DNA of 64,000 bases. It comes from an uncultured Anaerolineae bacterium (GTDB lineage: Bacteria > Chloroflexota > Anaerolineae > VGOG01). The stretch is from contig CAYMKL010000006.1 of the NCBI GenBank assembly GCA_964390805.1, positions 7,895 to 71,894 on the forward strand, read 5' to 3'. The notes under the pieces were generated by a model. The model ran no database searches. It saw only the letters and a list, made by a program, of their open reading frames with translations, and was not told the DNA's origin. Made by a program: the position numbers and the translations under genes. This document shows positions 551 through 42,917 of this stretch, one piece after another. Each line of letters starts with the position of its first letter. Within the stretch, counting starts at the first letter, position 1.

Positions 551-3500
551 ATGAGTTACCATAAGTTGCTACAGCGCATCATTCGCACAGTGTTGGTCCT
601 GTCTTTCCTGGTTGGGTGCCGCGCCGCTACACCTACACCCACACCTGTCCCGGCGACAGCTACGCCTATCCCCATTCCACCGACAGCTACGCCCACCCTC
701 ATCCCACCGACGCCCGTCCCGACACCCACCCCTCTGCCGTCGCTTCCAGAGGTGCGATACACTCCCGTGGCCGAGGCTGCGGTGTCCCCCATCGTCGTGG
801 ACCGCACCCCGCTCCGAGGGGCAACCCTGCAACCTGAGGGTGTCGTGGAGATCATCTTCGACCGGCTGATGGATGCGAAAGCTGTCCAGGCAGCCTTCAC
901 CCTTCAACCGGCTGGCGGGGAAGCCATTGCCGGTGAGGCCACCTGGCCCGATAACCGGACCATGCGCTTTCAGCCAGGCCAGTCCCTGGCCCTCAACACC
1001 GCTTACGACGTGGTGCTGACCCAGGATGCCACCGACGCGGACGGCACGCCGCTGGCAGAACCCTTCGTGTTTCGTTTCTTCACCACTGGCTTCCTGGAAG
1101 TGGCTCAGGTCATTCCCGCCCATGGCACCACTGACGTGGAGACCGACGGCACCATCACCGTCATCTTCAATCGTCCGGTGGTTCCCCTGACGACGCTGGG
1201 GCAGCAAAAAGACCTGCCACAACCTGTGGTCTTCGACCCGCCCATCGTCGGTGACGGTGAGTGGTTGAACACGTCCATTTACATCTTGCGGCCCAGCGAA
1301 CCCCTGGCTGGCGGCACCACCTACACCGCCCAGGTGAAGGCCGGCTTGACCGATGCCGCGGGCGATGCCTTGCTGCCCGAAGACTTCTCGTGGCAATTTG
1401 TCACTACCCCGCCCAAGGTGGTGTGGGTCAAGCCAGCGGACGACGCTGAACTGGTGGACGTTGACACCGCCATCACGGTCCAGTTCAACCAGCCCGTTGA
1501 TGCTGACTCGGTCCGAGCTACTTTCGGTCTTCAGGTGGGCTCCCAGGCCGTGTCCGGCCAGATCGAAGTTGACGGTGACACCGTGACCTTCACGCCGGAT
1601 GCACGGCTGGCCTTCGACCAGAGCTACCAGGTCACCATTGCCCCGGGAGTGACCTCGGCGGCGGGCGGCGCCGGCATGGGCGAAGCCTACACCTGGCGCT
1701 TCACCACCGTCCCCCTCCCGCGCATCGTTGATACCGAGCCGCGAGACGGTGAGCGCAACGCCTGGCCGTACACCGGCTTTCGGATCCAGTTCAACGCCCC
1801 CATAGATCCGACCACGGTGATGCCCCACGTCTCCATGACCCCGCCTCTCGAGGCAACAGAGGTGTACACCTCTTATTCGCACTGGGACAACAGCTTCTTC
1901 TTCTCCTTCGGAGCCCAGCCGTCCAGCGATTACGAAGTGCGCATTGAGGCCGGGATCGCCGATCCCTACGGAAACGAGATCGAGGAGGGGCGCACGGTAC
2001 GTTTCCGAACGGCAGCACTGGAGCCGGACTATCGGTTGCACGTGCCCGACATCGTGGGCACCTACAATGCCTACGATCCGGCGCGGCTGTACGTGTCCTA
2101 CGTGAACCTGAACCGCATCAACCTGCGCCTGTATCGCCTCAGCGCCGATGCCCTTCTCCAGCCCACTTATCGCCTGATCGAGAATCTGCCGGCAGAGGCG
2201 AGCCCGATCCGCCAGTGGGAGCTCCCGCTGGAAGCCCCGTTGAACGAGCGGAGCTACGCGCCCATTGATCTGGCGGAGGACGGCGGCAGTCTCGAGCCCG
2301 GCCTCTACCTGCTCGACACCGATGCGCCGGGCATTGATCGCGGCTACTGGGGCCGGCGACACATTCTGGTCGTGTCCCACATCAACCTGACCGTCAAGTC
2401 CGGCCCGCGGGATCACTTGGCCTGGGCGACGGATCTGGCCAGCGGAGAGCCGGTGCCCGACCTACCACTGACCTTCGCGGCACAAGAAGGCGGACTGCTG
2501 GGCAGCGCCAAGACGGATGCCGATGGCGTCGCCCGACTCGACCTGGCCTCTCAGCCCTATGGCCCCATCATGGTCTACAGTGAGGAGCCCTTCACCGCCG
2601 GGTCCGCGGAGTGGGGGCGGGGCACGTCGCCGTGGGATTTTGGACTGCAAGGCGGCTATGGCTGGTCGGACTTCCGCGTGCACACCTACACCGACCGGCC
2701 CATCTATCGCCCAGGCCAGACGGTGTACTTCAAGGGCGTCATTCGCGCCGAGGATGACGTCAGCTACACCCCACCCGACCCTTCGATAGGCTCAGGGCAG
2801 GGCCTGGGCCAAGTCCAGGTCATTGTGCACGATGCCAACTACGAGGAAATCTACAACCAATCCCTGGACGTCAGCCAGGCCGGCACATTCCACGACCAAC
2901 TGGAACTGGGCGGCGGTGCATCCCTGGGGAATTACGGCATCAGCGTGCAGTTTCAGAATCAGCACTTTTGGACTGAATTCCAGGTGGCCGCCTATCGCGC
3001 GCCGGAGTTCAAGGTGACGGTTGATCCCGGCCCCGACGAAATCCTGAAGGGTCAGGACATCAAAGCCACTGTCCACGTCAACTACTTCTTCGGCGGCCCC
3101 GTGGCCGACGTGCCCGTCGAATGGAACGTGCTGGCAGAAACCTACATTTTTGAGCCGCCGTGGGGTGGTCGCTACAGCTTCACTGACTCCGACGATCCCT
3201 GGATCTGCTTCGACTGCTGGTGGTATCGCCGCGAGGAATATCGCCCACCGATCCTGAGCGGCAGCGGCACCACCGATGCGCAGGGCCAACTGGTCATTGA
3301 GCTTTCGGGCGCGGAGCTCCGAGAGAAGTTGCCCGAAGGCAGCGTGGAGGTGACCATCGAAGCCACCGCCACCGGACGCGACAACCAGGTCATCTCCGGT
3401 CGTTCTAGCCTCATCGCCCACCGCGGCCAGTGGTACGTCGGCCTCAGCCCACAGCGCTACGTGGGCGAAGCCGGCGATGACTTTCCCATTGATCTGATCG

Positions 3501-6500
3501 CCGTGGATTGGGAGGGCGAACGCCTGCCGGGGCGGGAGATCGAGGTCAGTTTCTACCGCCGCGAGTGGAAGAACGTCTTCGTGGAGAACGAGGTCGGCGG
3601 CGGCATCTGGGAGACCGAGACCGAGGACACGCTGGTTGACACCGTTCCCGTGACCACCGACGAACTGGGTGAGGCAGTGGCCAGCTTCGTCCCGCCTCAG
3701 AGTGGTTCCTACAAGGTCGTCGCCGAGGACCCGGATCCCGCCAGCGACGTTCGCTCTTCGGTTTTCGTGTGGGTCAGCGGTGCGGAGTACGTCTCCTGGC
3801 GGCGCGAGAACCACGACCGCATCAATCTGATCTCCGACAAGAACAGCTACGAGCCGGGCGAAATGGCGGAGATTCTCATTCCGTCCCCCTTCGCCGGCCC
3901 GCACTGGGCGCTGGTCACGGTGGAGCGTGGCCGCATCATCCGCCACGAGGTGGTTCCGATCACCAGCAACAGCCAGGTCTACCGGTTGCCCATCCAGGAC
4001 AGCGACGCGCCCAACGTCTACGTGTCTGTGGTGCTGATCAAGGGACAGACCGCCGACGCGCCTCTGGCCGACTACAAAGTGGGCCTCCTGCCGCTGGACG
4101 TCACCCCGCGCGCCCAGACACTGAACGTCTCCGTCAGCCCCGACCGGCCCCAGGCCCAGCCCGGCGAAGAAGTCACCTACGTCGTCCAGACCACCGACGC
4201 CGAGGGCAACCCGGTCTCAGCCGAGCTGTCGCTGGATCTGGTGGACAAGGCTGTTCTGAGCCTACTGCCTCGGCAGCCCAGCGCCATCAAAGAGACATTC
4301 TATGGGCGGCAGGGTCTGAGCATTCAGACGGCCAGCGCCTTGGCCATTTCGGTCAATCGCCTGCTTCAGGAGATCGAGGAGGACTTAGGAGGCAGGGACG
4401 AGGCAGCCCTGCAGCCTATGGCGACGGTGGTTGTTGAGAAGCAGGTAGTGGTCGAGGCAGAGATGGCCCTTGAAGCACCTCAAGCAGCTCCTCGGGCAGC
4501 AGCGCCGCCGGGCGTCGAGCTGCGAGAGGAGTTTGCCGACACCGCCTACTGGAATCCGGTGGTCACCACCGATCCCGCCAGCGGCGCAGCCGAAGTGACG
4601 GTGAAGCTGCCGGACAACCTGACCACCTGGGTGATGCGGGGGGTCGGGCTCACAGGCCAGGGCATCTCGCCGCTGAAGGTCGGTGAAAGCACATCGGAAG
4701 TAGTCGCCACCCTGCCGCTGCTGATCCGGCCCGTGGCGCCGCGCTTCTTCGTGGTGGACGACCGGGCTGAGCTGGCAGCGCTGGTCAGCAACAACACCGA
4801 TACTGCGCTGGAGACCAGGGTCAGCCTGAGTGCGGAGGGCGTTTCGCTGCAGAGCGAGGCCGAGCAGACGGTGACCATCCCCGCTCGCAGCGAGACCAAG
4901 GTGACGTGGGACGTGACCGTTCAGGACGTCCCTCAGTCCCAATTGATCTTCGCCGCCGTTTCCGACCAGTACTCGGATGCCAGCAAGCCTCGCCTGACGA
5001 CGGGGCCCGAAGGCTCGCTGCTGGTGCTGCGCTACTCCGCCCCCGACATCGTCGGCACGGGCGGTCAACTGATCGAGGCCGGCAGTCGAACCGAAGTCGT
5101 CGCTCTGCCGCCGCGCTTCGATGATCGCCAGGGCGAGCTCAGCATCCAGCTCGATCCCAGTTTGGCGGCTGGTATGCGCGACGGGCTCACCTACCTGAAG
5201 CACTTCCCGTACGAGTGCACCGAGCAGACCGTTAGCCGCTTCCTACCCAACGTGCTCACCTACCGGGCGCTGACCGAGTTGGGCATCAGAGACGAAGAAT
5301 TGGCCGAAAAGCTACCGGGGCTGGTGGAACAGGGGCTGGAGAAGCTGTATCTCCAGCAGCACTCCGACGGTGGCTGGGGCTGGTGGGCTGACGATGAGAG
5401 CAACCCTCATCTCTCGGCCTACGTGGTGTTCGCTATCCTCAAGGCTCGCCAGGCCGGCTTCCCGGTGAGAACCGACGCCATCAGCAACGGTGAGTCGTAC
5501 CTGCTGAGCCAGGTGAAGGAAACGCGCCAGTTCGAGAGCTATCGTCAAGCCAATCAGCAGGCCTTCCTGTTGTACGTGTTGGCCGAGGATGGGAAGGCGC
5601 CGACCCAAGACCTGGACGCCCTGTACGAAGATCGCCAGAAGCTCAGTCACTACGGCCGCGCCTTCCTGGCCCTGTCCCTGTCGTTAACAAACCAGGCCGA
5701 GGGGCGCGTTGACACCCTGCTGTCCGACATCAACAACGCCGCCATCCTCAGCGCCACCGGCGCCCACTGGGAGGAGGAGAACTACGACTGGTGGGCCATG
5801 AATACCGACACGCGCTCCACGGCGGTGATCCTGGACGCCCTGGCGCGGCTGGACCTGGACAACGCGCTGATTCCCAACGTGGTGCGCTGGCTCATGGTCG
5901 CCCGGCGGGACGGTATCTGGGAGACGACCTATGAAACCGCCTGGGCCCTCATCGGCCTGACCGATTGGATGCGCGTCACTGGCGAACTGGAGGCCAACTA
6001 CGCTTACACCGCCCTGCTGAACGATGGCGAGATCATGCTGGGCCAGGCCACCCTGGAAAACGTGCAGGAGAGTGTGAAGCAGAAGATAGCCATCGCCGAT
6101 CTGGTGCTCGCCAGCAACCGCCTGACCATCGCTCGTGGTGAGGGGCCGGGGCGGCTGTACTACACCGCACACCTCAAGGTGTACCTGCCCGTGGAGGAGA
6201 TCGAGCCCGAGGATCGAGGCGTCATCGTGCAGCGCCGCTACACGCTGGCCAGTTGCCAGGATGGCGCAGCCCTTCGACAAGCTCAGGACACCGCCTGTAC
6301 CGATGTGCAAGAGGTCGCGCTCGGTGACGTGATCCGCGTAGACCTGACCATCATCGCGCCCAACGATCTGTACTACGTGGTGGTAGAAGACCCACTGCCA
6401 GCCGGTGCCGAGGCCATTGATACCGGCCTGGCGACGACCAGCCTACTGGCCCTGGAGCCCAGTCTAAGCCGGCAGCCGGAGGATGATCGTTGGTATCCGT

Positions 6501-15019: not shown

Positions 15020-15090
15020 TGACTCTTTTCACGGGAACCAGAGAAGGAAAAAGCCGCCGACTTTCGCGCTCAGTCGGCGGCTTTGCTTTG
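14252..15090 (+). repeat. Copy 1 of a ~0.83 kb direct duplication (3' two-thirds of the GH15 gene plus its terminator)
   Basis: About 98-99% identical to 25287-26110 over the coding part. Aligned by eye, e.g. cggaacctggctgtgg[g/t]ccctggccgaacacctccgcctgacagccgacc. Confidence 0.85.
15046..15090 (+). terminator. Rho-independent terminator hairpin (GCCGCCGAC-loop-GTCGGCGGC followed by a T-run)
   Basis: aaaaagccgccgactttcgcgctcagtcggcggctttgctttg lies immediately after the GH15 stop. Confidence 0.7.
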
Positions 15091-24968: not shown

Positions 24969-25145
24969 CTTGATTAGAGCCGGCGAGATGCCCCGTCTTC
25001 ACTAGGACGCTGGAGAGAGATGCCGTACCAGTTGGTTAGACCCATCACGATAGAGAGGCAGGTTCCCATAACAGCGACATATCGGACGTAGGCCGCAATC
25101 GCCCAATAGTGGGAGACCTATGTCCAGCACCGGTCACTCCCAAAT

Positions 25146-25186
25146 AAAGCCGCCGACTGAGCGCAACAGTCGGCGGCTTTGTTTTG
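25146..25186 (+). terminator. Rho-independent terminator hairpin of the GCCGCCGAC family
   Basis: aaagccgccgactgagcgcaacagtcggcggctttgttttg lies after the S8 protease gene. It is nearly the reverse complement of the 15046 hairpin. Confidence 0.65.
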
Positions 25187-34660: not shown

Positions 34661-35650
34661 TCACAACTCCACCTCGATGCCTAGCCCCAGCGTCTCGGCC
34701 CGCGTCAGCACCGCGCAGGCCACCGACACATCCTGCACGGCATTGCCCACCGACTTGAAGAGTGTGATCTCCCCAGCAGTCTCGCGCCCTGGCCTGGTCC
34801 CGGCAGCGATCTCCCCCAGCTCGGCGTAGATAGCGTCTTCGGCGATCAGACCCTTCTGGATGGGTATGATCAGGTCGCCCGTTTCGGCCAGGCTTGCCTC
34901 CCGTGAACCCACCACGATTCTCGCCCTGCGGACCGTCTGCTCGGGAACCTCCTGCATCTCCGGCGTGAAGGAGCCGACGGCGTTGATGTGGGCACCGGGC
35001 TTGAGGTCCGCATCGGCGAAGACAGGCGTCCTGGAGGTGGTGGCGGTGCATAAGACATCGGCCTCACGGACGGCCTCCGCCGGGGAGGAGGCGGCCCGGA
35101 GGTCTGCGGGCACCCTCCCCTTTCCCCCCATCTCCTGGGCGAACCTTTCCGCCGTCTGGGGGTTGACGTCGTAGACCCAGGCTCTTTCAATGTCCCGCAC
35201 CTCGCAGACCGCCAAAAGCTGGGTGCGCCCCTGGGCTCCCGCCCCGAAGATGGCCGCCACCTTGGCGTCCTTCCTGGCTAGGAGGTCGGTGGCCGCGCCC
35301 GAAGCCGCGCCGGTGCGCAGCGCGGTGAGATAGGTGCCGTCCATCACCGCCACCGGCCGTCCGGTAGATGCCTCCACCACGGCCACCAAGGCGAAGATGG
35401 TCGGCAATCCCATCTTCAGGTTGCGGGGAAAGACAGACACGATCTTCACCCCCAGGTCGTCGCTCTCCGAGAGGTAGGCAGGCATGAACAGAGCCACTCC
35501 CTCGTGTCTATCCACCGGCAGTTGAGTGCGCAGGGGCACCACCGCCTTCCCCGCCGAGAGTTGAGCGAAGGCCCCCTTGACGGTCTCAATGGCCTCCCAC
35601 ATGGGGACGGCTTGCTGGACGTCCTGCTTCGAGAGCACTCGTAGTTTCAT
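34661..35650 (-). CDS. Ornithine cyclodeaminase/mu-crystallin family protein (OCD / Pyr2C-reductase type)
   Basis: The overall pattern matches the OCD_Mu_crystallin family (MKLRVLSKQDVQQAVPMWEAIETVKGAF...; NAD Rossmann AIFGAGAQG). RBS GGGAGGG precedes the ATG at 35650. Confidence 0.8.
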   Translation of the reverse strand: MKLRVLSKQDVQQAVPMWEAIETVKGAFAQLSAGKAVVPLRTQLPVDRHEGVALFMPAYLSESDDLGVKIVSVFPRNLKMGLPTIFALVAVVEASTGRPVAVMDGTYLTALRTGAASGAATDLLARKDAKVAAIFGAGAQGRTQLLAVCEVRDIERAWVYDVNPQTAERFAQEMGGKGRVPADLRAASSPAEAVREADVLCTATTSRTPVFADADLKPGAHINAVGSFTPEMQEVPEQTVRRARIVVGSREASLAETGDLIIPIQKGLIAEDAIYAELGEIAAGTRPGRETAGEITLFKSVGNAVQDVSVACAVLTRAETLGLGIEVEL

Positions 35651-35713
35651 TTGTCCCTCCCATTCTCCAGTCAATAAGGCAGGGCAGAATCGCCCCCGCT
35701 GCCCTCCCACATC

Positions 35714-36871
35714 CTACTTCAGCTTCTCTTCCCCGCCGAACTCCCGATACGGGCTCAGCTCCTCCAGCGTTTCCTCATCCTCCGGCGTCAGCTCTTCCTG
35801 CACCATGCGACTCAACAGAGAACCTACCCCCGGTCCCAACATATAGCCTTGCCCACACATGCCAACGGCGTAGATGTATCCTGCCAGTTCCCGCACCCAC
35901 CCAATGATAGGGAAGCCATCAGGCGTCATCGGATAGAGCCCCCGCCAGGTGCGGCGTACCCGGATGTTAGCCAGTTTGGGCATCAAGCCCACCATCCGTG
36001 GCGCGATCATCGGCAGGAATTCCGAGGTCTCCCGGCGGTCGGTGCCCACAATAGGCGGCTCCGGCGTGATGCAGAAGACAAGCGCGCCGGTCCCTTGCTG
36101 GTAGAAGTAGTAGTTCTTAGAGCCCTCAGCGGGGCGGATGTCCACGATCATCGGCTCCACGAAGCGCGCCACCGGCTCGGTGATGCCCGCCTCATGGCTA
36201 TCTGGCGCCACCGGCGCATCCAACCCGGACATCTGGGCGACCGCTCGCGCCCAAGGACCAGCAGCGTTGATCACCGTCTCCGTGGCGTAGCCTCCCTGGT
36301 CGGTGCGGACTCCGACCACCTTTCCTCGACGGCGAATGATTCCGGTAACCCGCTCGTGGAAACGGAACTCGACTCCCCGCTCTCTCGCGCGGGTGTAGAA
36401 CGCATGCGCAGTCAGCAAGGGCGACGCAGCCCCATCCCCAGGCGAGTAAGTCCCACCGATGAGGTGCTCAGGCTGCAAATCTGGGATTACTCCCAACAGG
36501 TCATCCCGATCCAGCCAGCGGATATCCAAGCCATAAGCCTGCTGAATCTTCAACAAGTCCTTGAGGACCAACTCCTCCCGCTCGCGATGGGCGACGAAGG
36601 AGTAGCCGCCCTGAACCCACTCGATGTCATCCCCGTAGGTCTCCTCCCAGGTGGAGAACACCTCAATGGACTTGAGGCAAAGGCGAATCTTCGATGGTGC
36701 CGAGTGGGTGGCGCGGATGCCGCCGATGGCCGCCTTGTTGGAGCCCTGTCCGGGGCTGGCGAATTGATCAATGACTAACGGCTTCAGTCCAGCCTGAGCC
36801 ATGAAGAATGCAGTCGGCAGCCCAACACTTCCTGCACCGACGATGATGACGTCGTAGACCCGGGTGGTCAT
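35714..36871 (-). CDS. FAD-dependent oxidoreductase (sarcosine oxidase beta / opine oxidase B / DadA-like), subunit copy 1
   Basis: FAD-binding GXGXXG (YDVIIVGAGSVG) and DAO family fold. Confidence 0.8.
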   Translation of the reverse strand: MTTRVYDVIIVGAGSVGLPTAFFMAQAGLKPLVIDQFASPGQGSNKAAIGGIRATHSAPSKIRLCLKSIEVFSTWEETYGDDIEWVQGGYSFVAHREREELVLKDLLKIQQAYGLDIRWLDRDDLLGVIPDLQPEHLIGGTYSPGDGAASPLLTAHAFYTRARERGVEFRFHERVTGIIRRRGKVVGVRTDQGGYATETVINAAGPWARAVAQMSGLDAPVAPDSHEAGITEPVARFVEPMIVDIRPAEGSKNYYFYQQGTGALVFCITPEPPIVGTDRRETSEFLPMIAPRMVGLMPKLANIRVRRTWRGLYPMTPDGFPIIGWVRELAGYIYAVGMCGQGYMLGPGVGSLLSRMVQEELTPEDEETLEELSPYREFGGEEKLK

Positions 36872-36887
36872 GCATACCTCTCCATAA

Positions 36888-36955
36888 GTAGGACAAGTTG
36901 GCAACTTGTCCTACTGTGGCGGGAGGAGTAGGACAAGTTGCCAACTTGTCTACAA
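36888..36955. repeat. Pair of REP-like palindromes flanking the RAYT gene (GGACAAGTTGGCAACTTGTCC and GGACAAGTTGCCAACTTGTCT)
   Basis: Perfect 9-bp-stem palindromes at 36891-36912 and 36931-36951. Confidence 0.8.
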
Positions 36956-37594
36956 GGGATATTTACAATAGCTCCACTTCCACTCTTCCCAGTACTCAAC
37001 CAAGCCGGCTTTGACGGGATTGTTCAGTACGTACCAGATGATCCGACGTAGTTCCGCTTCATCTCGCACGAAGTGGTCGTAGTTCTCGTGTTGCCAGAAC
37101 TGCCCTTCACGTCCCAACAACAGATTGGACTCGCGAGCAGTGTATAGTTTGAGGGAGTGCATGATAGCGGACATGGCGTAGTAGGTGCCATCTTCCTTAA
37201 GTAGTGGGGTGTAAACCACGTGGACGTGGTTGGGCATGATGCAATAGGCCACCAGGTCGTAGACCCGACCGTCACGATGGTGCAAGCTTTCAGCCACCAG
37301 GTCGGCGATCTGAGGGTCTCGAAGCCAGAAGGGGCCGCTCCGGGCCATATCCAGTGCTGTATCCCATTTGCCGAAAAGGCGGCGTTGCTCCAGGTAGGCC
37401 CGCTCGGCGCGTTTCTGGGGATCGGGGATGCAGGCCAGGATTGCTTCGACCCGGTCGGCTTCCACACGCAGTTGCTGCAGAACCTCGGCCGGGATGGAAC
37501 CCGCCAGGCGGAAGGTGATGAACAGCGTAGCACCGGGCGGTTGGATGTGCGGCAGGTGCCTACGGTAAAACAGCTTGTATTCCAGGGTGCTCAT
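36950..37594 (-). CDS. REP-associated tyrosine transposase (RAYT; IS200/IS605 TnpA-like HuH enzyme)
   Basis: HuH motif (CIMPNHVHVVY) and a downstream catalytic Tyr region. The N-terminus YRRHLPH is typical of the Y1 transposase/RAYT family. Confidence 0.8.
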   Translation of the reverse strand: MSTLEYKLFYRRHLPHIQPPGATLFITFRLAGSIPAEVLQQLRVEADRVEAILACIPDPQKRAERAYLEQRRLFGKWDTALDMARSGPFWLRDPQIADLVAESLHHRDGRVYDLVAYCIMPNHVHVVYTPLLKEDGTYYAMSAIMHSLKLYTARESNLLLGREGQFWQHENYDHFVRDEAELRRIIWYVLNNPVKAGLVEYWEEWKWSYCKYPL

Positions 37595-37604
37595 GTTTTC
37601 CTCT

Positions 37605-37670
37605 GGTAGGGCAAGTTGGCAACTTGCCCTACAGTCCTTCTCGTAGAGCAAGTTGCCAACTTGCTTTACA
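37605..37670. repeat. Pair of REP-like palindromes (GGGCAAGTTGGCAACTTGCCC and AGCAAGTTGCCAACTTGCT) upstream of the RAYT gene
   Basis: Palindromes at 37609-37629 and 37646-37666 share the CAAGTTGGCAACTTG core with the pair at 36888-36955. Confidence 0.8.
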
Positions 37671-39798
37671 GTCCGCCTTCGTGCAGGTCGGTGGCGTGGG
37701 TGACCGGCACCTCCTCGGCCAGCCCCTCCCCGACGGCGATGCCAGCGAAGGCCCCTAGCGGCACCTCAATGAAGAGCGGACGCTGCGTGTTCTCCCTCAC
37801 TTCCTCCAGTGAGACGCCCTCCTCGCGGAAGAGACGTTTGATCAGGTTGGTGCACGTCTTGCCACCGCAGGCCCCCATCCCGGCCCGCGTCACCGCCTTG
37901 AGATGGTTCATATCTCGCACACCAGAGCGGATGAGTTCGCGGATCTCCCCTGCCGTCACCCGCTCACAGCGGCAGATGATCGTGTCGCTGGAAATGTGCT
38001 GGACGGCACGCTCCAATGGCTCGGTTACCCAGGGATCCTGCACACGGATGCCGGCGATGCGCTTGGCGATCTCGTGGGGCGCTTTCACCCGCACCAACAG
38101 CGCTCGGTCGGCGAACCTGGTCTTTCGCACCCTCACCACCCTCACGTTGCCTAACACCTTCCCCTCCGTGTCTAGCACCGTTACGATGTCCCCCTCATCA
38201 ATGGTCTCCTCGGGGAACTCGTAGGGGATGGTGACGGTGGGGTACTCGACGTCTTTCCGATAGTCCACCATCGTAACAGCCAGCCCAGGGCAGATGGCGA
38301 CGCACTGCTCACAGCCAAGACAATCCTCGCCGATGTACTCCGGCAGACCTCGGATGTCGTTCTCCTCGATGATGATACAGCCTTGCGGACAGACGGAGAT
38401 GCAGGGATTGCACGGGATCTCCTGAGCGCAGTGCAGCACCGGGAAGACCCCCTCCTCTTTTTCCGGGATGTCCTCGGTGACCACCGCGCCAGGCCGCGAT
38501 TTGAGGACCTCGGCGGTGCGGTGCCACTCCGGTGGCACTTCCCCCACGTCCCGCCCCAGAGCTTTGGCGATCTCCAAGCCACGGATGCGACCCATGAACA
38601 TCGCCGCCGACGCCTCAGCGATCTCCTCAGCGTCGCCCGCTGCGTAGACCGGCAAGCCAAACTCCTCCGCCTTTTGGAAGAACTCGTCCACCGGATCCAG
38701 TCCCACCGCGACGAGCACCGTGTCACATTCGAACGTCTTCTCCGTGTCGGGGATGGGCTGCCAGTTCTCGTCTATCTGGGCGATAGTGACCGAGTCAACC
38801 TCATCCGTGCCGCTGGCGCTGAGGACGGTATGTGAAGTGTAGATAGGCACACCCAGGCGAGCTAGTTTGTCCTTGTGGACCTTGTAGCCAGAGCACTCGG
38901 GCAGGGCCTCGCACAGGCCGACGACCTGGATGCCGGCCTGGAGCGCGTGATAACCGGCGATCAGCCCTACGTTTCCTCCGCCGACGATGAACAAGCGGTC
39001 GGAGGACTTCACCAGATCCCGATTGACCAGCGTCTGGAAGGCCCCCGCGCCGTAGACGCCCGGCAGCGTGTTCCCCCTGAAGGCCAGCGACTTCTCTCGC
39101 GCGCCCGTCGCCACCAGCAGGATGTGAGGCCGGACCAGAACGTAGTGCCCCTCCCGCAGAAGCCCCACCTTCCGATCGGAGTAGACGGCCAGCGCCGTGG
39201 TGTTGAGCCAGACCTGGACGTTCTCGTAGCCGCTCACTTCCTGTTCCAGCTTCTTGGCGATGTCAATGCCGCGCGTCCCGGCGTAGCAGGCCTCGATGGA
39301 GCCGAAGAACTTGTGCGTCTGGAGCACCAGCTTGCCGCCCAGGCAGTGCTTGTCATCCACGATGAGCGTACGCACGCCCGCCTTGCCCAGCTCGATGGCC
39401 GCCGAAAGCCCCGCCGGCCCAGCGCCGATGATCAAACATTCGACATCGCCGACATGGATCCCCTGTGTATCGAGCACCGTTTCGACGGCGGGCAGCACCG
39501 GCTTCCCGTCCATCGGCTCGACCCACATTCCCGCCTCCACCGGGGTCATGCAGGACTTGACGGGCAGACCGTTGGCCATCACCAGGCACTGCGCACACTG
39601 ACCATTGGCGCAGAAAATGCCTTGGGGCGCACCATCCTTGGGGTGGTGCCCGAAGATGCGCACCCCTTTAGCAAAAAGGGCCGAAGCGATGGTCTCTCCC
39701 TCACGCGCCACCATCGCTAGGCCCTGCCAGGTGAACTCAAACGTAGGTTGATCCTCGACGGGGAGGATAGGATGCTCACGAATACGATAGTCCGCCAT
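37666..39798 (-). CDS. Opine/amino-acid dehydrogenase alpha subunit (OoxA/HcnAB/PDH-alpha-like): N-terminal 2Fe-2S domain, FAD/NAD(P)-binding, BFD-like [2Fe-2S] and 2x[4Fe-4S] ferredoxin domains
   Basis: N-terminal Cys motif CANGQCAQC. GXGXXG (IIGAGPAGLSAAIELG). BFD-like CRCERVTAGEI...CGGKTC. 4Fe-4S motifs CISVCPQGC and CLGCEQCVAICPG. Confidence 0.8.
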   Translation of the reverse strand: MADYRIREHPILPVEDQPTFEFTWQGLAMVAREGETIASALFAKGVRIFGHHPKDGAPQGIFCANGQCAQCLVMANGLPVKSCMTPVEAGMWVEPMDGKPVLPAVETVLDTQGIHVGDVECLIIGAGPAGLSAAIELGKAGVRTLIVDDKHCLGGKLVLQTHKFFGSIEACYAGTRGIDIAKKLEQEVSGYENVQVWLNTTALAVYSDRKVGLLREGHYVLVRPHILLVATGAREKSLAFRGNTLPGVYGAGAFQTLVNRDLVKSSDRLFIVGGGNVGLIAGYHALQAGIQVVGLCEALPECSGYKVHKDKLARLGVPIYTSHTVLSASGTDEVDSVTIAQIDENWQPIPDTEKTFECDTVLVAVGLDPVDEFFQKAEEFGLPVYAAGDAEEIAEASAAMFMGRIRGLEIAKALGRDVGEVPPEWHRTAEVLKSRPGAVVTEDIPEKEEGVFPVLHCAQEIPCNPCISVCPQGCIIIEENDIRGLPEYIGEDCLGCEQCVAICPGLAVTMVDYRKDVEYPTVTIPYEFPEETIDEGDIVTVLDTEGKVLGNVRVVRVRKTRFADRALLVRVKAPHEIAKRIAGIRVQDPWVTEPLERAVQHISSDTIICRCERVTAGEIRELIRSGVRDMNHLKAVTRAGMGACGGKTCTNLIKRLFREEGVSLEEVRENTQRPLFIEVPLGAFAGIAVGEGLAEEVPVTHATDLHEGGL

Positions 39799-39936
39799 AC
39801 GTCTTCTTCCTTGATTGGACGCGCTTCCGCTGCGCGCTTCTCGCCATTGAGAGATGCAGACCGATTCTATCACAATCCTCTTGGGATGTCAAACAAACTT
39901 CTTCCGTTGACAGCAGTGGCACCATAGAGACTGTTT

Positions 39937-40044
39937 GTCATTGCGAGACGGAGGCGAAGCAATCCCCACCCCGCAAATTGGAGATTGCCCTTCGGCTAAG
40001 CTCAGGACAGGCTTCGGCACAGAAACCGTGCCTCGCAATGACAC
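39937..40044. repeat. MITE-like element of about 108 nt with imperfect terminal inverted repeats GTCATTGCGAG...CTCGCAATGAC (copy A)
   Basis: gtcattgcgagacggaggcgaagcaatcccc...cgtgcctcgcaatgacac. A related copy lies at 42829-42917. Confidence 0.6.
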
Positions 40045-41836: not shown

Positions 41837-41950
41837 TGAACCCAATTCTACCACAACTTCATCTCTTTGGCAACCACTCAGTCTGGAAGTCAAAAAGCCG
41901 CCGGCCCACCTCCTCCGTGATGGCTTTTGCAAGGGCGAATATGGATTAGT

Positions 41951-42828: not shown

Positions 42829-42917
42829 GTCATTGCGAGGCGTTTCTTTGCCGAAGCAATCTCCCGCCAGCGAATTGGGGATCGCTTCGTCGCAAAACCC
42901 GCTCCTCGCGATGACAC
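42829..42917. repeat. MITE-like element (copy B) with GTCATTGCGAGG...CCTCGCGATGAC termini
   Basis: gtcattgcgaggcgtttctttgccgaagcaatctcccgcc...ggggatcgcttcgtcgcaaaacccgctcctcgcgatgacac. Confidence 0.6.

Follow-up and report, generated by a model that had tools for sequence, protein, structure and literature searches.

The window analysed here, a stretch of 64 kb, carries on its minus strand an alpha-subunit gene (37666..39798, 710 aa), a RAYT gene (36950..37594, 214 aa) and a gene for a DAO-family FAD oxidoreductase (35714..36871, 385 aa), referred to below as DAO2. The alpha subunit contains FAD/NAD(P), 2Fe-2S, 4Fe-4S and BFD domains (Fer2_4/Pyr_redox_2/4Fe-4S/BFD) and is sarcosine-oxidase-alpha/proline-dehydrogenase-like. 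An ornithine-cyclodeaminase/mu-crystallin gene (34661-35710) follows directly after DAO2. This arrangement agrees with the original prediction, which placed the unit between the alpha-subunit gene and the second FAD-oxidoreductase gene of a co-directional minus-strand operon.

Four GTAG-headed palindromes with the core CAAGTTG(G/C)CAACTTG flank the intact RAYT gene. All four had been predicted, and we extended their coordinates by a few bases to take in the GTAG/CTAC heads. The outer upstream copy, REP A (37643..37669; GTAGAGCAAGTTGCCAACTTGCTTTAC), has one G:T position. Its head reads G-TAA on the minus strand, and the alpha-subunit gene terminates with this TAA (37666-37668) as its stop codon. 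The inner upstream copy, REP B (37606..37632; GTAGGGCAAGTTGGCAACTTGCCCTAC), is a perfect 27-nt palindrome that ends 11 nt from the RAYT ATG, an interval that includes the SD-like AGAGGA. On the downstream side, the inner copy, REP C (36928..36953; GTAGGACAAGTTGCCAACTTGTCTAC), has a right arm that is short by one base, and it overlaps the RAYT gene, the stop codon of which (TAG, 36950-36952) is the REP head. The outer downstream copy, REP D (36888..36914; GTAGGACAAGTTGGCAACTTGTCCTAC), is again a perfect 27-nt palindrome and ends 16 nt from the DAO2 ATG. A new ribosome-binding region together with this ATG occupies 36869..36887 of the minus strand (UUAUGGAGAGGUAUGC).

The REPs are 26-27 nt long with 12-bp stems, and as single-stranded DNA they fold at -6.4 to -11.9 kcal/mol (-7.3 for REP A, -11.9 for REP B and -6.4 for REP C). 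The GT(A/G)G tetranucleotide was found in 4/4, all four lie between coding sequences, and two of the four overlap stop codons. Since the central position switches between the two bases from copy to copy (G, C, G, C), each pair constitutes an inverted doublet, with a spacer of 10-11 nt. Allowing up to two mismatches, the 15-nt core occurs four times in the window, compared to 0.04 expected from shuffles, none of which reached four. No fifth REP was detected in the 64 kb with the 27-mer at three mismatches, a generic palindrome scan or a compensated-core pattern. The window also lacks a second RAYT copy, and no tnpB-like ORF adjoins the gene.

The RAYT protein and its REP family

The 214-aa product is an HUH/Y1 protein that carries the motifs YRRHLPH and CIMPNHVHVVY, as originally quoted, and its gene is a RAYT, a small domesticated-transposase gene. 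The NCBIfam model NF047646 (REP_Tyr_transpos) matched residues 92-208 only, at 80.2 bits against a cutoff of 80. The Pfam model PF01797 (Y1_Tnp), which had been proposed as a check, stayed slightly below its cutoff, at 21.3 against 23. We retrieved 5962 homologues, many of which are labelled "REP element-mobilizing transposase RayT" by JGI. The best PDB match by sequence is E. coli TnpA-REP (4ER8, 18% identity). Foldseek analysis of the AlphaFold model (pLDDT 88) likewise placed 4ER8 first (E = 1.8e-8; target-normalised TM 0.64), followed by ISDra2 and IS608 TnpA (E ~3e-4), with IS200 TnpA also behind 4ER8. Sequence and fold thus bear out the claim of a RAYT-type protein flanked by REP doublets.

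The HUH motif H123-V-H125, which lies in CIMPNHVHVVY, aligned to HMH of 4ER8. Y188 (IIWYVLNNPVK) aligned to the tyrosine of E. coli TnpA-REP in ...VDYIYINPVK..., which we counted as Y115, and is by this alignment the predicted catalytic residue. Y188 falls within helix 179-190 of the model, and H123, H125 and Y188 are invariant across 38 homologues. RAYT is under purifying selection, with dN/dS values of 0.14-0.24 against its closest homologues and below 0.07 against distant ones. Its GC content is 57%, compared to 62-63% for the flanks. We inspected nine RAYT homologue loci and found inverted REPs on both sides of all nine; for each homologue examined, the terminal TAG is also the head of its 3' REP.

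The pattern GTAGNNCAAGTTGNCAACTTG was found in at least 118 blocks from at least 64 species-level assemblies, mostly Chloroflexota and representing several orders, where our own estimate of the chance expectation is approximately 17 blocks. One 5.2-Mb scaffold contains at least nine REP blocks and another assembly at least eleven; the blocks are 8 kb long and derive from MAGs, in which binning errors could affect such per-genome counts and also the few non-Chloroflexota hosts. Among the matches listed, one of 118 blocks encodes a RAYT homologue and 117 do not. Approximately 107 of the 118 listed contain a single exact core, with degenerate or different-class partner REPs present in some blocks. 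The dispersed copies all come from related genomes; the 64 kb examined here contain the cassette copies only.

The family consensus is GT(A/G)G-NN-CAAGTTGGCAACTTG-NN-CTAC, and the two heads are GTAG or GTGG in 85 and 94 of 125 family copies. Five of the 12 stem pairs show compensatory changes (26 cells versus 6.6 in shuffles), and the GTAG head sequence is conserved even where the partner bases are non-complementary. The stem is kept intact through covariation, and the GTAG head remains constant. We dropped a covariance model of the REP as circular, since the copies had been ascertained with a fixed core. Heads also coincide with gene ends, with 21 of 150 terminating an ORF of at least 100 codons, compared to 7.8% for random GTAG (p = 0.007). 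We saw no evidence of a strand rule in this association, the stop-bearing side being distributed 10 versus 12 relative to the centre base. Many REP copies are followed, 10-20 nt downstream, by an SD with a start codon. We considered whether the REP carries its own SD and rejected the idea, as the flanks of the copies share only generic SD sequences.

Orthologous sites and the order of insertion

The operon had been put forward for comparison with relatives that lack the insertion, and we found approximately 25 of these. In each, the alpha stop codon overlaps the ATG of the next gene by one base (TAATG/TGATG), and in most relatives the SD of the downstream gene lies inside the alpha coding sequence (codons ...GAG GGA GG...). 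The overlap shows that the cassette split a translationally coupled alpha/DAO2 pair. The cassette is positioned exactly at the alpha stop codon, at the formerly overlapping junction; the alpha C-terminus (...HEGGL) is the same as in relatives, and the ancestral SD has been replaced by the new region in front of DAO2. The proposal that the unit was inserted inside an operon is therefore upheld, given the one-base overlap of the flanking genes in most relatives and the SD within the upstream coding sequence. The accompanying premise that REP/RAYT systems usually lie between operons is weak. According to PMC12306157 (citing Higgins 1982), the earliest descriptions of REPs were of intercistronic elements in operons, and those of E. 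coli are commonly assigned either to a 3'-terminal class or to one that is intergenic within polycistronic operons.

Several relatives carry REPs at the orthologous site. Two other metagenomic lineages, L200 and L201, have the same cassette layout, and L201 has already lost one of its four REPs. The downstream gene of L201 also has a pair of in-frame stops, a feature that could be linked to the REP loss or unrelated to it. Two nearer relatives, L120 and L123, have a solo REP at exactly the same site, with its TAG serving as the alpha stop. On the alpha tree, these four lineages and the window group as one nested clade. Outside it, a RAYT has inserted separately, and apparently independently, at this alpha stop codon in a more distant clade (L202), and two other palindrome families are found at that codon in L136 and L167. 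RAYT, alpha and DAO2 have diverged alike between the window, L200 and L201 (89-94% identity, with a dS of approximately 0.2 for RAYT), which argues for vertical inheritance rather than recent hopping. Within approximately 630 kb of DAO2 loci from relatives, we found a single REP with the window core, plus three other palindromes matching a relaxed version of it. The REP copy number is probably low in this clade.

Two orders of events could account for these sites. A solo REP may have arrived first at the alpha stop, with RAYT and further REPs added later at this pre-existing REP, or a complete REPtron may have inserted once and then lost RAYT twice. A neighbour-joining tree of the alpha C-terminus has the topology (L123 solo REP, (L120 solo REP, (L201, (window, L200)))), on which the first order requires two events and the second requires three. 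This tree carries no support values and was built on metagenomic contigs. Moreover, deletion between directly adjacent, near-identical REPs is easy, L201 has lost one of its REPs, and there are E. coli strains in which REPtrons are documented to have lost their RAYT (PMC3733652). The sequence 3' of the L120 REP (TGACGGTAGGAGGTACGC-ATG) is similar to that 3' of the final REP of L200, and the flanks therefore fit either order. We give the arrival of a solo REP before RAYT slightly less than an even chance.

Identity of the element and possible consequences for the operon

The locus is best explained as a REPtron, with an inverted doublet of cognate GTAG REPs on each side of a single RAYT at the alpha stop, a reading to which we assign a probability of roughly 0.85. 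By analogy with E. coli TnpA-REP and the TnpA proteins of IS200/IS605 elements, RAYT would bind the REP hairpin and GTAG on single-stranded DNA and would cleave and rejoin beside the REP via Y188, with H123 and H125 holding the metal. On the same analogy, this activity could spread or maintain REP copies.

It is improbable that the locus is instead an autonomous IS200/IS605-type insertion sequence, in which a Y1 transposase mobilises itself along with its hairpin ends, the REPs being the left and right ends of the element and not a repeat family that propagates separately. Such an element would fit the RAYT homologues (69-84% identity) that occur in unrelated contexts, each tightly wrapped in REPs: behind a Clp-like gene, behind ATP synthase genes, flanked by an FGGY kinase and a RuBisCO-like gene, and beside radical-SAM/LuxR genes. 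The apparently independent RAYT at the L202 alpha stop, the slightly reduced GC content of the gene and the lack of a dispersed REP in the window point in the same direction. However, the 117 listed blocks without RAYT indicate that the hairpins spread gene-free, and the same palindrome stands at both ends, rather than distinct left and right sequences, with no tnpB. Further, the orthologous site is shared by three lineages with the similar divergence expected of vertical inheritance, and the protein is closer to TnpA-REP than to IS200/IS608 TnpA by both fold and HMM. The palindromes could also be host regulatory sites (operators for a dimeric regulator, or attenuators/terminators) with only an incidental transposase nearby, which would suit perfect, operator-like palindromes of 15-27 bp at gene boundaries of a catabolic operon, but this reading is effectively refuted because the same sequence recurs among unrelated genes in at least 64 other assemblies, flanks all RAYT homologues inspected irrespective of their neighbours, is missing from the same operon in relatives, and lacks the U-tract of an intrinsic terminator.

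Within the REPtron reading, we considered the possibility that the GTAG head is an insertion target as well as a recognition element, such that REPs, and occasionally the whole cassette, insert 3' of a G-TAG stop. This idea is doubtful, though it would explain why REP heads are often the stop codons of the upstream gene and of RAYT, why tight co-directional gene junctions are hit, and why the alpha stop was occupied separately in the window clade, in L202 and by the two other palindrome families (L136, L167). If it were correct, RAYT would still move itself and would not be fully domesticated, and it would be expressed as a passenger of a catabolic operon.

At the RNA level, minimum-free-energy folding predicts one 23-bp hairpin for REPs A and B (-42.9 kcal/mol, z = -8.1) and a 27-bp hairpin for REPs C and D (-46.7 kcal/mol, z = -8.1). 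Neither is accompanied by a U-tract, and we found no intrinsic terminator or separate promoter within the cassette. The promoter-like sites closest to it precede the alpha gene and a DUF6125 gene. An Rfam search yielded only spurious sub-threshold matches to miRNA precursors, caused by the long hairpins. Because the hairpins lack a U-tract, the cassette is probably read through by transcription. Given such read-through, RAYT would be co-transcribed with the dehydrogenase genes, and the operon message would be longer by 794 nt and would acquire two hairpins of very high stability (-43 and -47 kcal/mol). Translational coupling of alpha and DAO2 would be replaced by independent DAO2 initiation at the new SD. 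The hairpins abut the alpha and RAYT stop codons and, as for E. coli REPs, could lower translation of those genes or could protect or process the mRNA. According to PMC12306157 (citing Liang 2015), E. coli REPs reduce translation when the distance to a stop codon is less than 16 nt. Modulation of alpha and DAO2 subunit expression by the REPs is plausible, an effect we infer by analogy.

The REPtron described here is essentially an ordinary example of a known element type. GTAG REPs, among them those of Chloroflexi, have already been described, as have REPtrons and TAG stops provided by REP termini (PMC3733652), and intra-operon REPs are also published, so the result is at the level of annotation and leaves the understanding of REPs unchanged. 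The locus does provide a natural before/after series for REP/RAYT insertion into a translationally coupled pair, running from the overlapping junction to a solo REP, the full cassette and a cassette with one REP lost. In addition, we document a GTAG-type REP with a 15-nt core common to dozens of species-level genomes, mostly Chloroflexota. To our knowledge, this core is spread more widely than is known for proteobacterial REP families, and the family could serve studies of REP-RAYT co-evolution outside Proteobacteria.

Comparison with known REP and insertion-sequence systems

The E. coli TnpA-REP system (YafM, 4ER8) is the nearest solved relative of the protein in sequence and fold, and both proteins combine an HUH motif with a single catalytic tyrosine. 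The model differs by approximately 50 extra residues, which are predicted to form a helical hairpin (36-82) between strand 1 and the core. Both systems place the gene between inverted REPs, each composed of GTAG followed by a stem-loop. In contrast to the E. coli REPs, those of the window are near-perfect palindromes and present a GTAG head on both strands, and the host is an Anaerolineae-type member of the Chloroflexota. E. coli genomes contain hundreds of REPs, whereas copy number appears low here, with at least 11 blocks in the top assembly listed. As in E. coli, where the 3' REP runs into the RAYT gene's end and neighbouring ORFs take their TAG stops from REP heads (PMC3733652), the 3' REP of the cassette overlaps the RAYT end and heads supply TAG stops to neighbours.

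Proteobacterial REPIN sequences are, as far as is known, lineage-specific; the 15-nt core described here is instead common to at least 64 species-level assemblies from several orders. In other respects the locus resembles the REPIN-RAYT systems of Pseudomonas and Enterobacteria (Bertels & Rainey; RAYT Groups 2 and 3). In sister lineages RAYT stands at the orthologous position, in keeping with vertical inheritance; the 64-kb window contains one RAYT copy, and the inverted REP doublets that flank the gene can fold into one long hairpin. Unlike REPINs, the dispersed copies of relatives appear to be singlets in most cases. RAYT Group 4, which is reported to be common in Cyanobacteria, Chlorobia and Caldilineae and to have only approximately 14 genomic copies of its flanking 16-mer (PMC5581495), shares the low REP copy number and may be the group to which this RAYT belongs.

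The TnpA proteins of IS200/IS605 elements (IS608, ISDra2) have the same HUH/Y1 fold and recognise hairpins in single-stranded DNA, as RAYT would by analogy. IS608 targets TTAC, and the conserved tetranucleotide beside the REP hairpin may be analogous. Insertion is precise to the nucleotide in both cases. The cassette differs in having no tnpB, in its identical palindromes at both ends, in hairpins that spread gene-free and in not being multicopy in the 64-kb window.

The closest parallels in position are the intercistronic REPs of E. coli and Salmonella (for example malE-malF, hisJ-hisQ and nrdAB), which likewise form hairpins between co-directional genes, no more than 15 nt away from the stop codon of the upstream gene. 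E. coli REPs so placed lower translation of the upstream gene and stabilise its mRNA, according to PMC12306157 (citing Higgins 1982 and Liang 2015). Unlike those junctions, the one described here holds RAYT itself and arose from an ancestrally overlapping stop and start.

The REPtron and its transposase

A palindrome of 26-27 nt, built as GTAG-NN-CAAGTTG-(G/C)-CAACTTG-NN-CTAC, occurs four times within 36888-37669 (36888-36914, 36928-36953, 37606-37632 and 37643-37669), and its 15-nt core is found four times in the 64-kb window compared to 0.04 expected. The original prediction had placed four REPs with the core CAAGTTG(G/C)CAACTTG around an HUH gene, and we located all of them. Because their centre bases alternate (G, C, G, C), each pair forms an inverted doublet whose units lie 10-11 nt apart. 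No REP was found elsewhere in the window, even when the 27-mer was allowed three mismatches or compensated core variants. As RNA, each doublet folds into one hairpin of 23-27 bp (-42.9 and -46.7 kcal/mol, z ~ -8), and a single REP as ssDNA forms a 12-bp stem (-6.4 to -11.9 kcal/mol).

Between the doublets lies an ORF of 214 codons (36950-37594, minus strand). Its product scored 80.2 bits against the NCBIfam REP-associated tyrosine transposase model, 0.2 above the cutoff of 80 and over residues 92-208, and 21.3 against Pfam Y1_Tnp, slightly under the cutoff of 23. The Y1_Tnp check proposed earlier thus fell slightly short, and the NCBIfam cutoff was barely reached. Among solved structures, sequence search returned E. 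coli TnpA-REP (PDB 4ER8) as the sole significant match (E = 6e-4), aligning HVH(123-125) with HMH of 4ER8 and Y188 with catalytic Tyr115; both are invariant across 38 homologues. An AlphaFold model (pLDDT 88, pTM 0.85) also has 4ER8 as its top fold match (E = 1.8e-8), with the TnpA proteins of ISDra2, IS608 and IS200 ranking lower, and contains an additional helical hairpin at residues 36-82 that explains the partial HMM coverage. Homologue searches yielded 5962 matches, mainly from Chloroflexota MAGs, many of them labeled "REP element-mobilizing transposase RayT" or "transposase". The dN/dS ratio is 0.14-0.24 for the closest homologues and <0.07 for distant ones, indicating that the gene is functional. 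The protein is RAYT-like by all tests run, with borderline curated HMM scores, and the predicted RAYT-type HUH transposase is supported by sequence and by fold. The element is a REPtron, a RAYT gene bracketed by its REPs, with GTAG-type REPs.

Other repeats were noted in the window. Hairpins at 15050-15084 and 25142-25184 share the stem AAAGCCGCCGACT...AGTCGGCGGCTTT; they may represent either terminators or a further small repeat.

The alpha/DAO2 junction

The cassette separates alpha, a sarcosine-oxidase-alpha-like gene (37666-39798, minus strand; 710 aa with Fer2_4, Pyr_redox_2, 4Fe-4S, BFD and SO_alpha_A3 domains), from DAO2, a downstream DAO-family oxidoreductase gene on the same strand (35714-36871, minus). 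An ornithine-cyclodeaminase/mu-crystallin (OCD) gene lies downstream of DAO2, and a first DAO gene (DAO1) and a DUF6125 gene lie upstream of alpha. We compared this junction with 80 metagenomic relatives of DAO2 (68-94% identity). About 25 of the 80 fetched have a TAATG or TGATG overlap between the alpha stop and the DAO2 start, with the SD GGAGG encoded within the C-terminal ...EGG codons of alpha. Judged from these sequences, this textbook translationally coupled pair clearly represents the ancestral arrangement. In the window, a REP head immediately follows the final alpha codon (Leu) and supplies TAA as the stop (TAG in relatives), the alpha C-terminus is unaltered, and DAO2 has gained a new SD downstream of REP D, the last REP (16 nt). 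Together, these features indicate that insertion was nucleotide-precise at the stop codon of the coupled junction. The overlapping relatives and the co-directional genes bear out the predicted insertion inside an operon. The premise that such a location is unusual is weak, because the presence of REPs within operons is classical knowledge (Higgins 1982, cited in PMC12306157).

Two strong sigma-70-like promoter matches were observed, one just upstream of alpha (39864-39892, minus strand; TTGACA-17-TAGAAT, extended TG, 11/12) and one upstream of the DUF6125 gene (41845-41873, minus strand; TTGCCA-17-TAGAAT), so alpha-RAYT-DAO2-OCD may be a transcription unit distinct from DUF6125-DAO1. A MITE-like element of ~90-110 bp, bounded by 12-nt terminal inverted repeats (TGTCATTGCGAG...CTCGCAATGACA), is present at 39936-40043 and ~42829-42915; the former copy occupies much of the 261-nt gap from DAO1 to alpha. 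For GTCATTGCGAG, five matches with at most one mismatch were counted (1.2 expected).

The alpha-REP-RAYT-REP-DAO2 layout also exists in two further lineages, L200 (RAYT, alpha and DAO2 each 93% identical to the window) and L201 (89%, 94% and 94%), the latter having already lost REP A, the copy nearest alpha. The next relatives, L120 and L123, carry a solo REP without RAYT at the identical position, where alpha terminates at the TAG of that REP. In a neighbour-joining tree of the alpha C-terminus, which carries no support values, the window and these four lineages form a nested clade inside the overlapping-junction relatives. Either a solo REP arrived and RAYT came afterwards, which takes two events, or the whole REPtron inserted and RAYT was subsequently lost twice, which takes three. 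RAYT is also present on a third contig, L202 (alpha 78%, REP core CAAGATG), which belongs to a separate clade of the alpha tree; its insertion at this alpha stop codon is most readily explained as an independent event. The L201 DAO2 orthologue 3' of the cassette (2703-3860) has two in-frame stops and is otherwise 94% identical; either loss of function as a pseudogene or an error in the metagenome assembly may account for the stops.

In other relatives, other elements occupy this junction: L136 (5845-6000) has another GTAGGG/GTAAGG-headed palindrome in three copies (GGCGCGCCATCAGAATGGCGCC), L167 (2033-2216) has an unrelated palindrome, and L165 and L168 have GGATTGC-type heptamer tandem repeats. 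Whole genes are inserted in L122, L134, L145, L151, L157-L159, L162, L163, L183, L133 and L138, where the alpha/DAO2 gap is 0.9-4.1 kb; by eye, they appear to encode either a secreted beta-propeller protein resembling glucose/sorbosone dehydrogenases, accompanied in some cases by an MFS transporter, or a CHASE2-adenylate-cyclase-like protein together with another gene. This junction is evidently either permissive or targeted.

The REP family across genomes

Scanning one genome per species with GTAGNNCAAGTTGNCAACTTG identified at least 118 blocks in at least 64 assemblies, compared to ~17 expected by chance on our own estimate. Among the matches listed, hosts are mostly Anaerolineae, Thermoflexales, Caldilineae and other Chloroflexota, with a minority labeled Pyrinomonadaceae, Planctomycetota and other phyla. 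At least nine blocks lie along one 5.2-Mb Anaerolineae scaffold, and at least 11 in one Anaerolineales MAG. A RAYT homologue accompanies one of the 118 listed blocks (L052, 70% identity), indicating that the hairpin has dispersed independently of the gene. GTAG-headed palindromes wrap the RAYT gene at all nine homologue loci inspected, and their cores differ by compensated changes (CAAGATG.CATCTTG, CAAATTG.CAATTTG, CAAGCTGGAAGCTTG). In 23 copies, hand-picked and thus illustrative rather than unbiased, double changes occur at 5 of the 12 stem pairs (26 cells versus 6.6 in shuffles), and the GTAG head sequence is conserved even where pairing is impossible.

The CAAGTTG REP regularly stands beside a second GTAG-headed palindrome class, GTAGCGCAATTTGCTAAATTGCG, in some Anaerolineae MAGs (W92_265, binchicken_co67_58 and others); such hetero-doublet flanks were found in L016, L020, L025, L047, L053, L062, L064, L079, L104 and L105. 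BIME-like clusters of 3-4 REPs with mixed core variants (CAAGTTGATAACTTG, CAAGATG.CATCTTG) adjoin RAYT in L203 (3860-4000 and 4646-4790) and occur without RAYT in L017 (293-392).

REP heads also serve as stop codons. At 9/9 homologue loci inspected, RAYT terminates at the TAG in the 3' REP head, and 21 of 150 REP heads end an ORF that is 100 codons or longer, compared to 7.8% of random GTAG sites from those sequences (p = 0.007). Among copies of the family, stop-bearing heads favoured neither strand relative to the centre base. In L207, an upstream FGGY-kinase gene terminates at the TAG of a REP head. There, a RAYT homologue (73%; 3958-4700) is likewise inserted between this FGGY-family kinase gene and a RuBisCO-like gene whose SD is located after the 3' REP, a second cassette in a tight co-directional junction.

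Predicted activity and known systems

With anatomy, family relationships, selection on RAYT, REP dispersal and a disrupted coupled junction established, its activity can be considered by analogy. As in E. coli TnpA-REP and IS200/IS605 biochemistry, RAYT would bind the hairpin and GTAG on ssDNA, then cleave and rejoin via Y188. We found no U-tract or promoter-like site inside the cassette, which suggests probable read-through and co-transcription of RAYT with the operon. Duplexes of 23-27 bp could be RNase III substrates or stop 3' exonucleases. The in-frame stops in L201 DAO2 are one anecdotal hint of a cassette cost. Hairpins contacting the alpha and RAYT stops would occupy the same position as E. 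coli REPs that lower the translation of the gene preceding them (Liang 2015, cited in PMC12306157).

The use of REP heads as stop codons is already known: Di Nocera et al. (PMC3733652) described REP termini that provide TAG stops to neighbouring ORFs. They also described GTAG REPs in Chloroflexi, "REPtrons" consisting of RAYT plus REPs, and possible overlap of REPs with the 3' end of the RAYT gene. The window RAYT is probably a member of the RAYT group that Bertels et al. 2017 (PMC5581495) found frequently in Cyanobacteria, Chlorobia and Caldilineae and whose flanking repeats are low in copy number. Specific to this locus are the RAYT gene itself within a formerly overlapping junction and the natural series of junction states across relatives, and specific to this REP is the breadth of genomes with an identical core.
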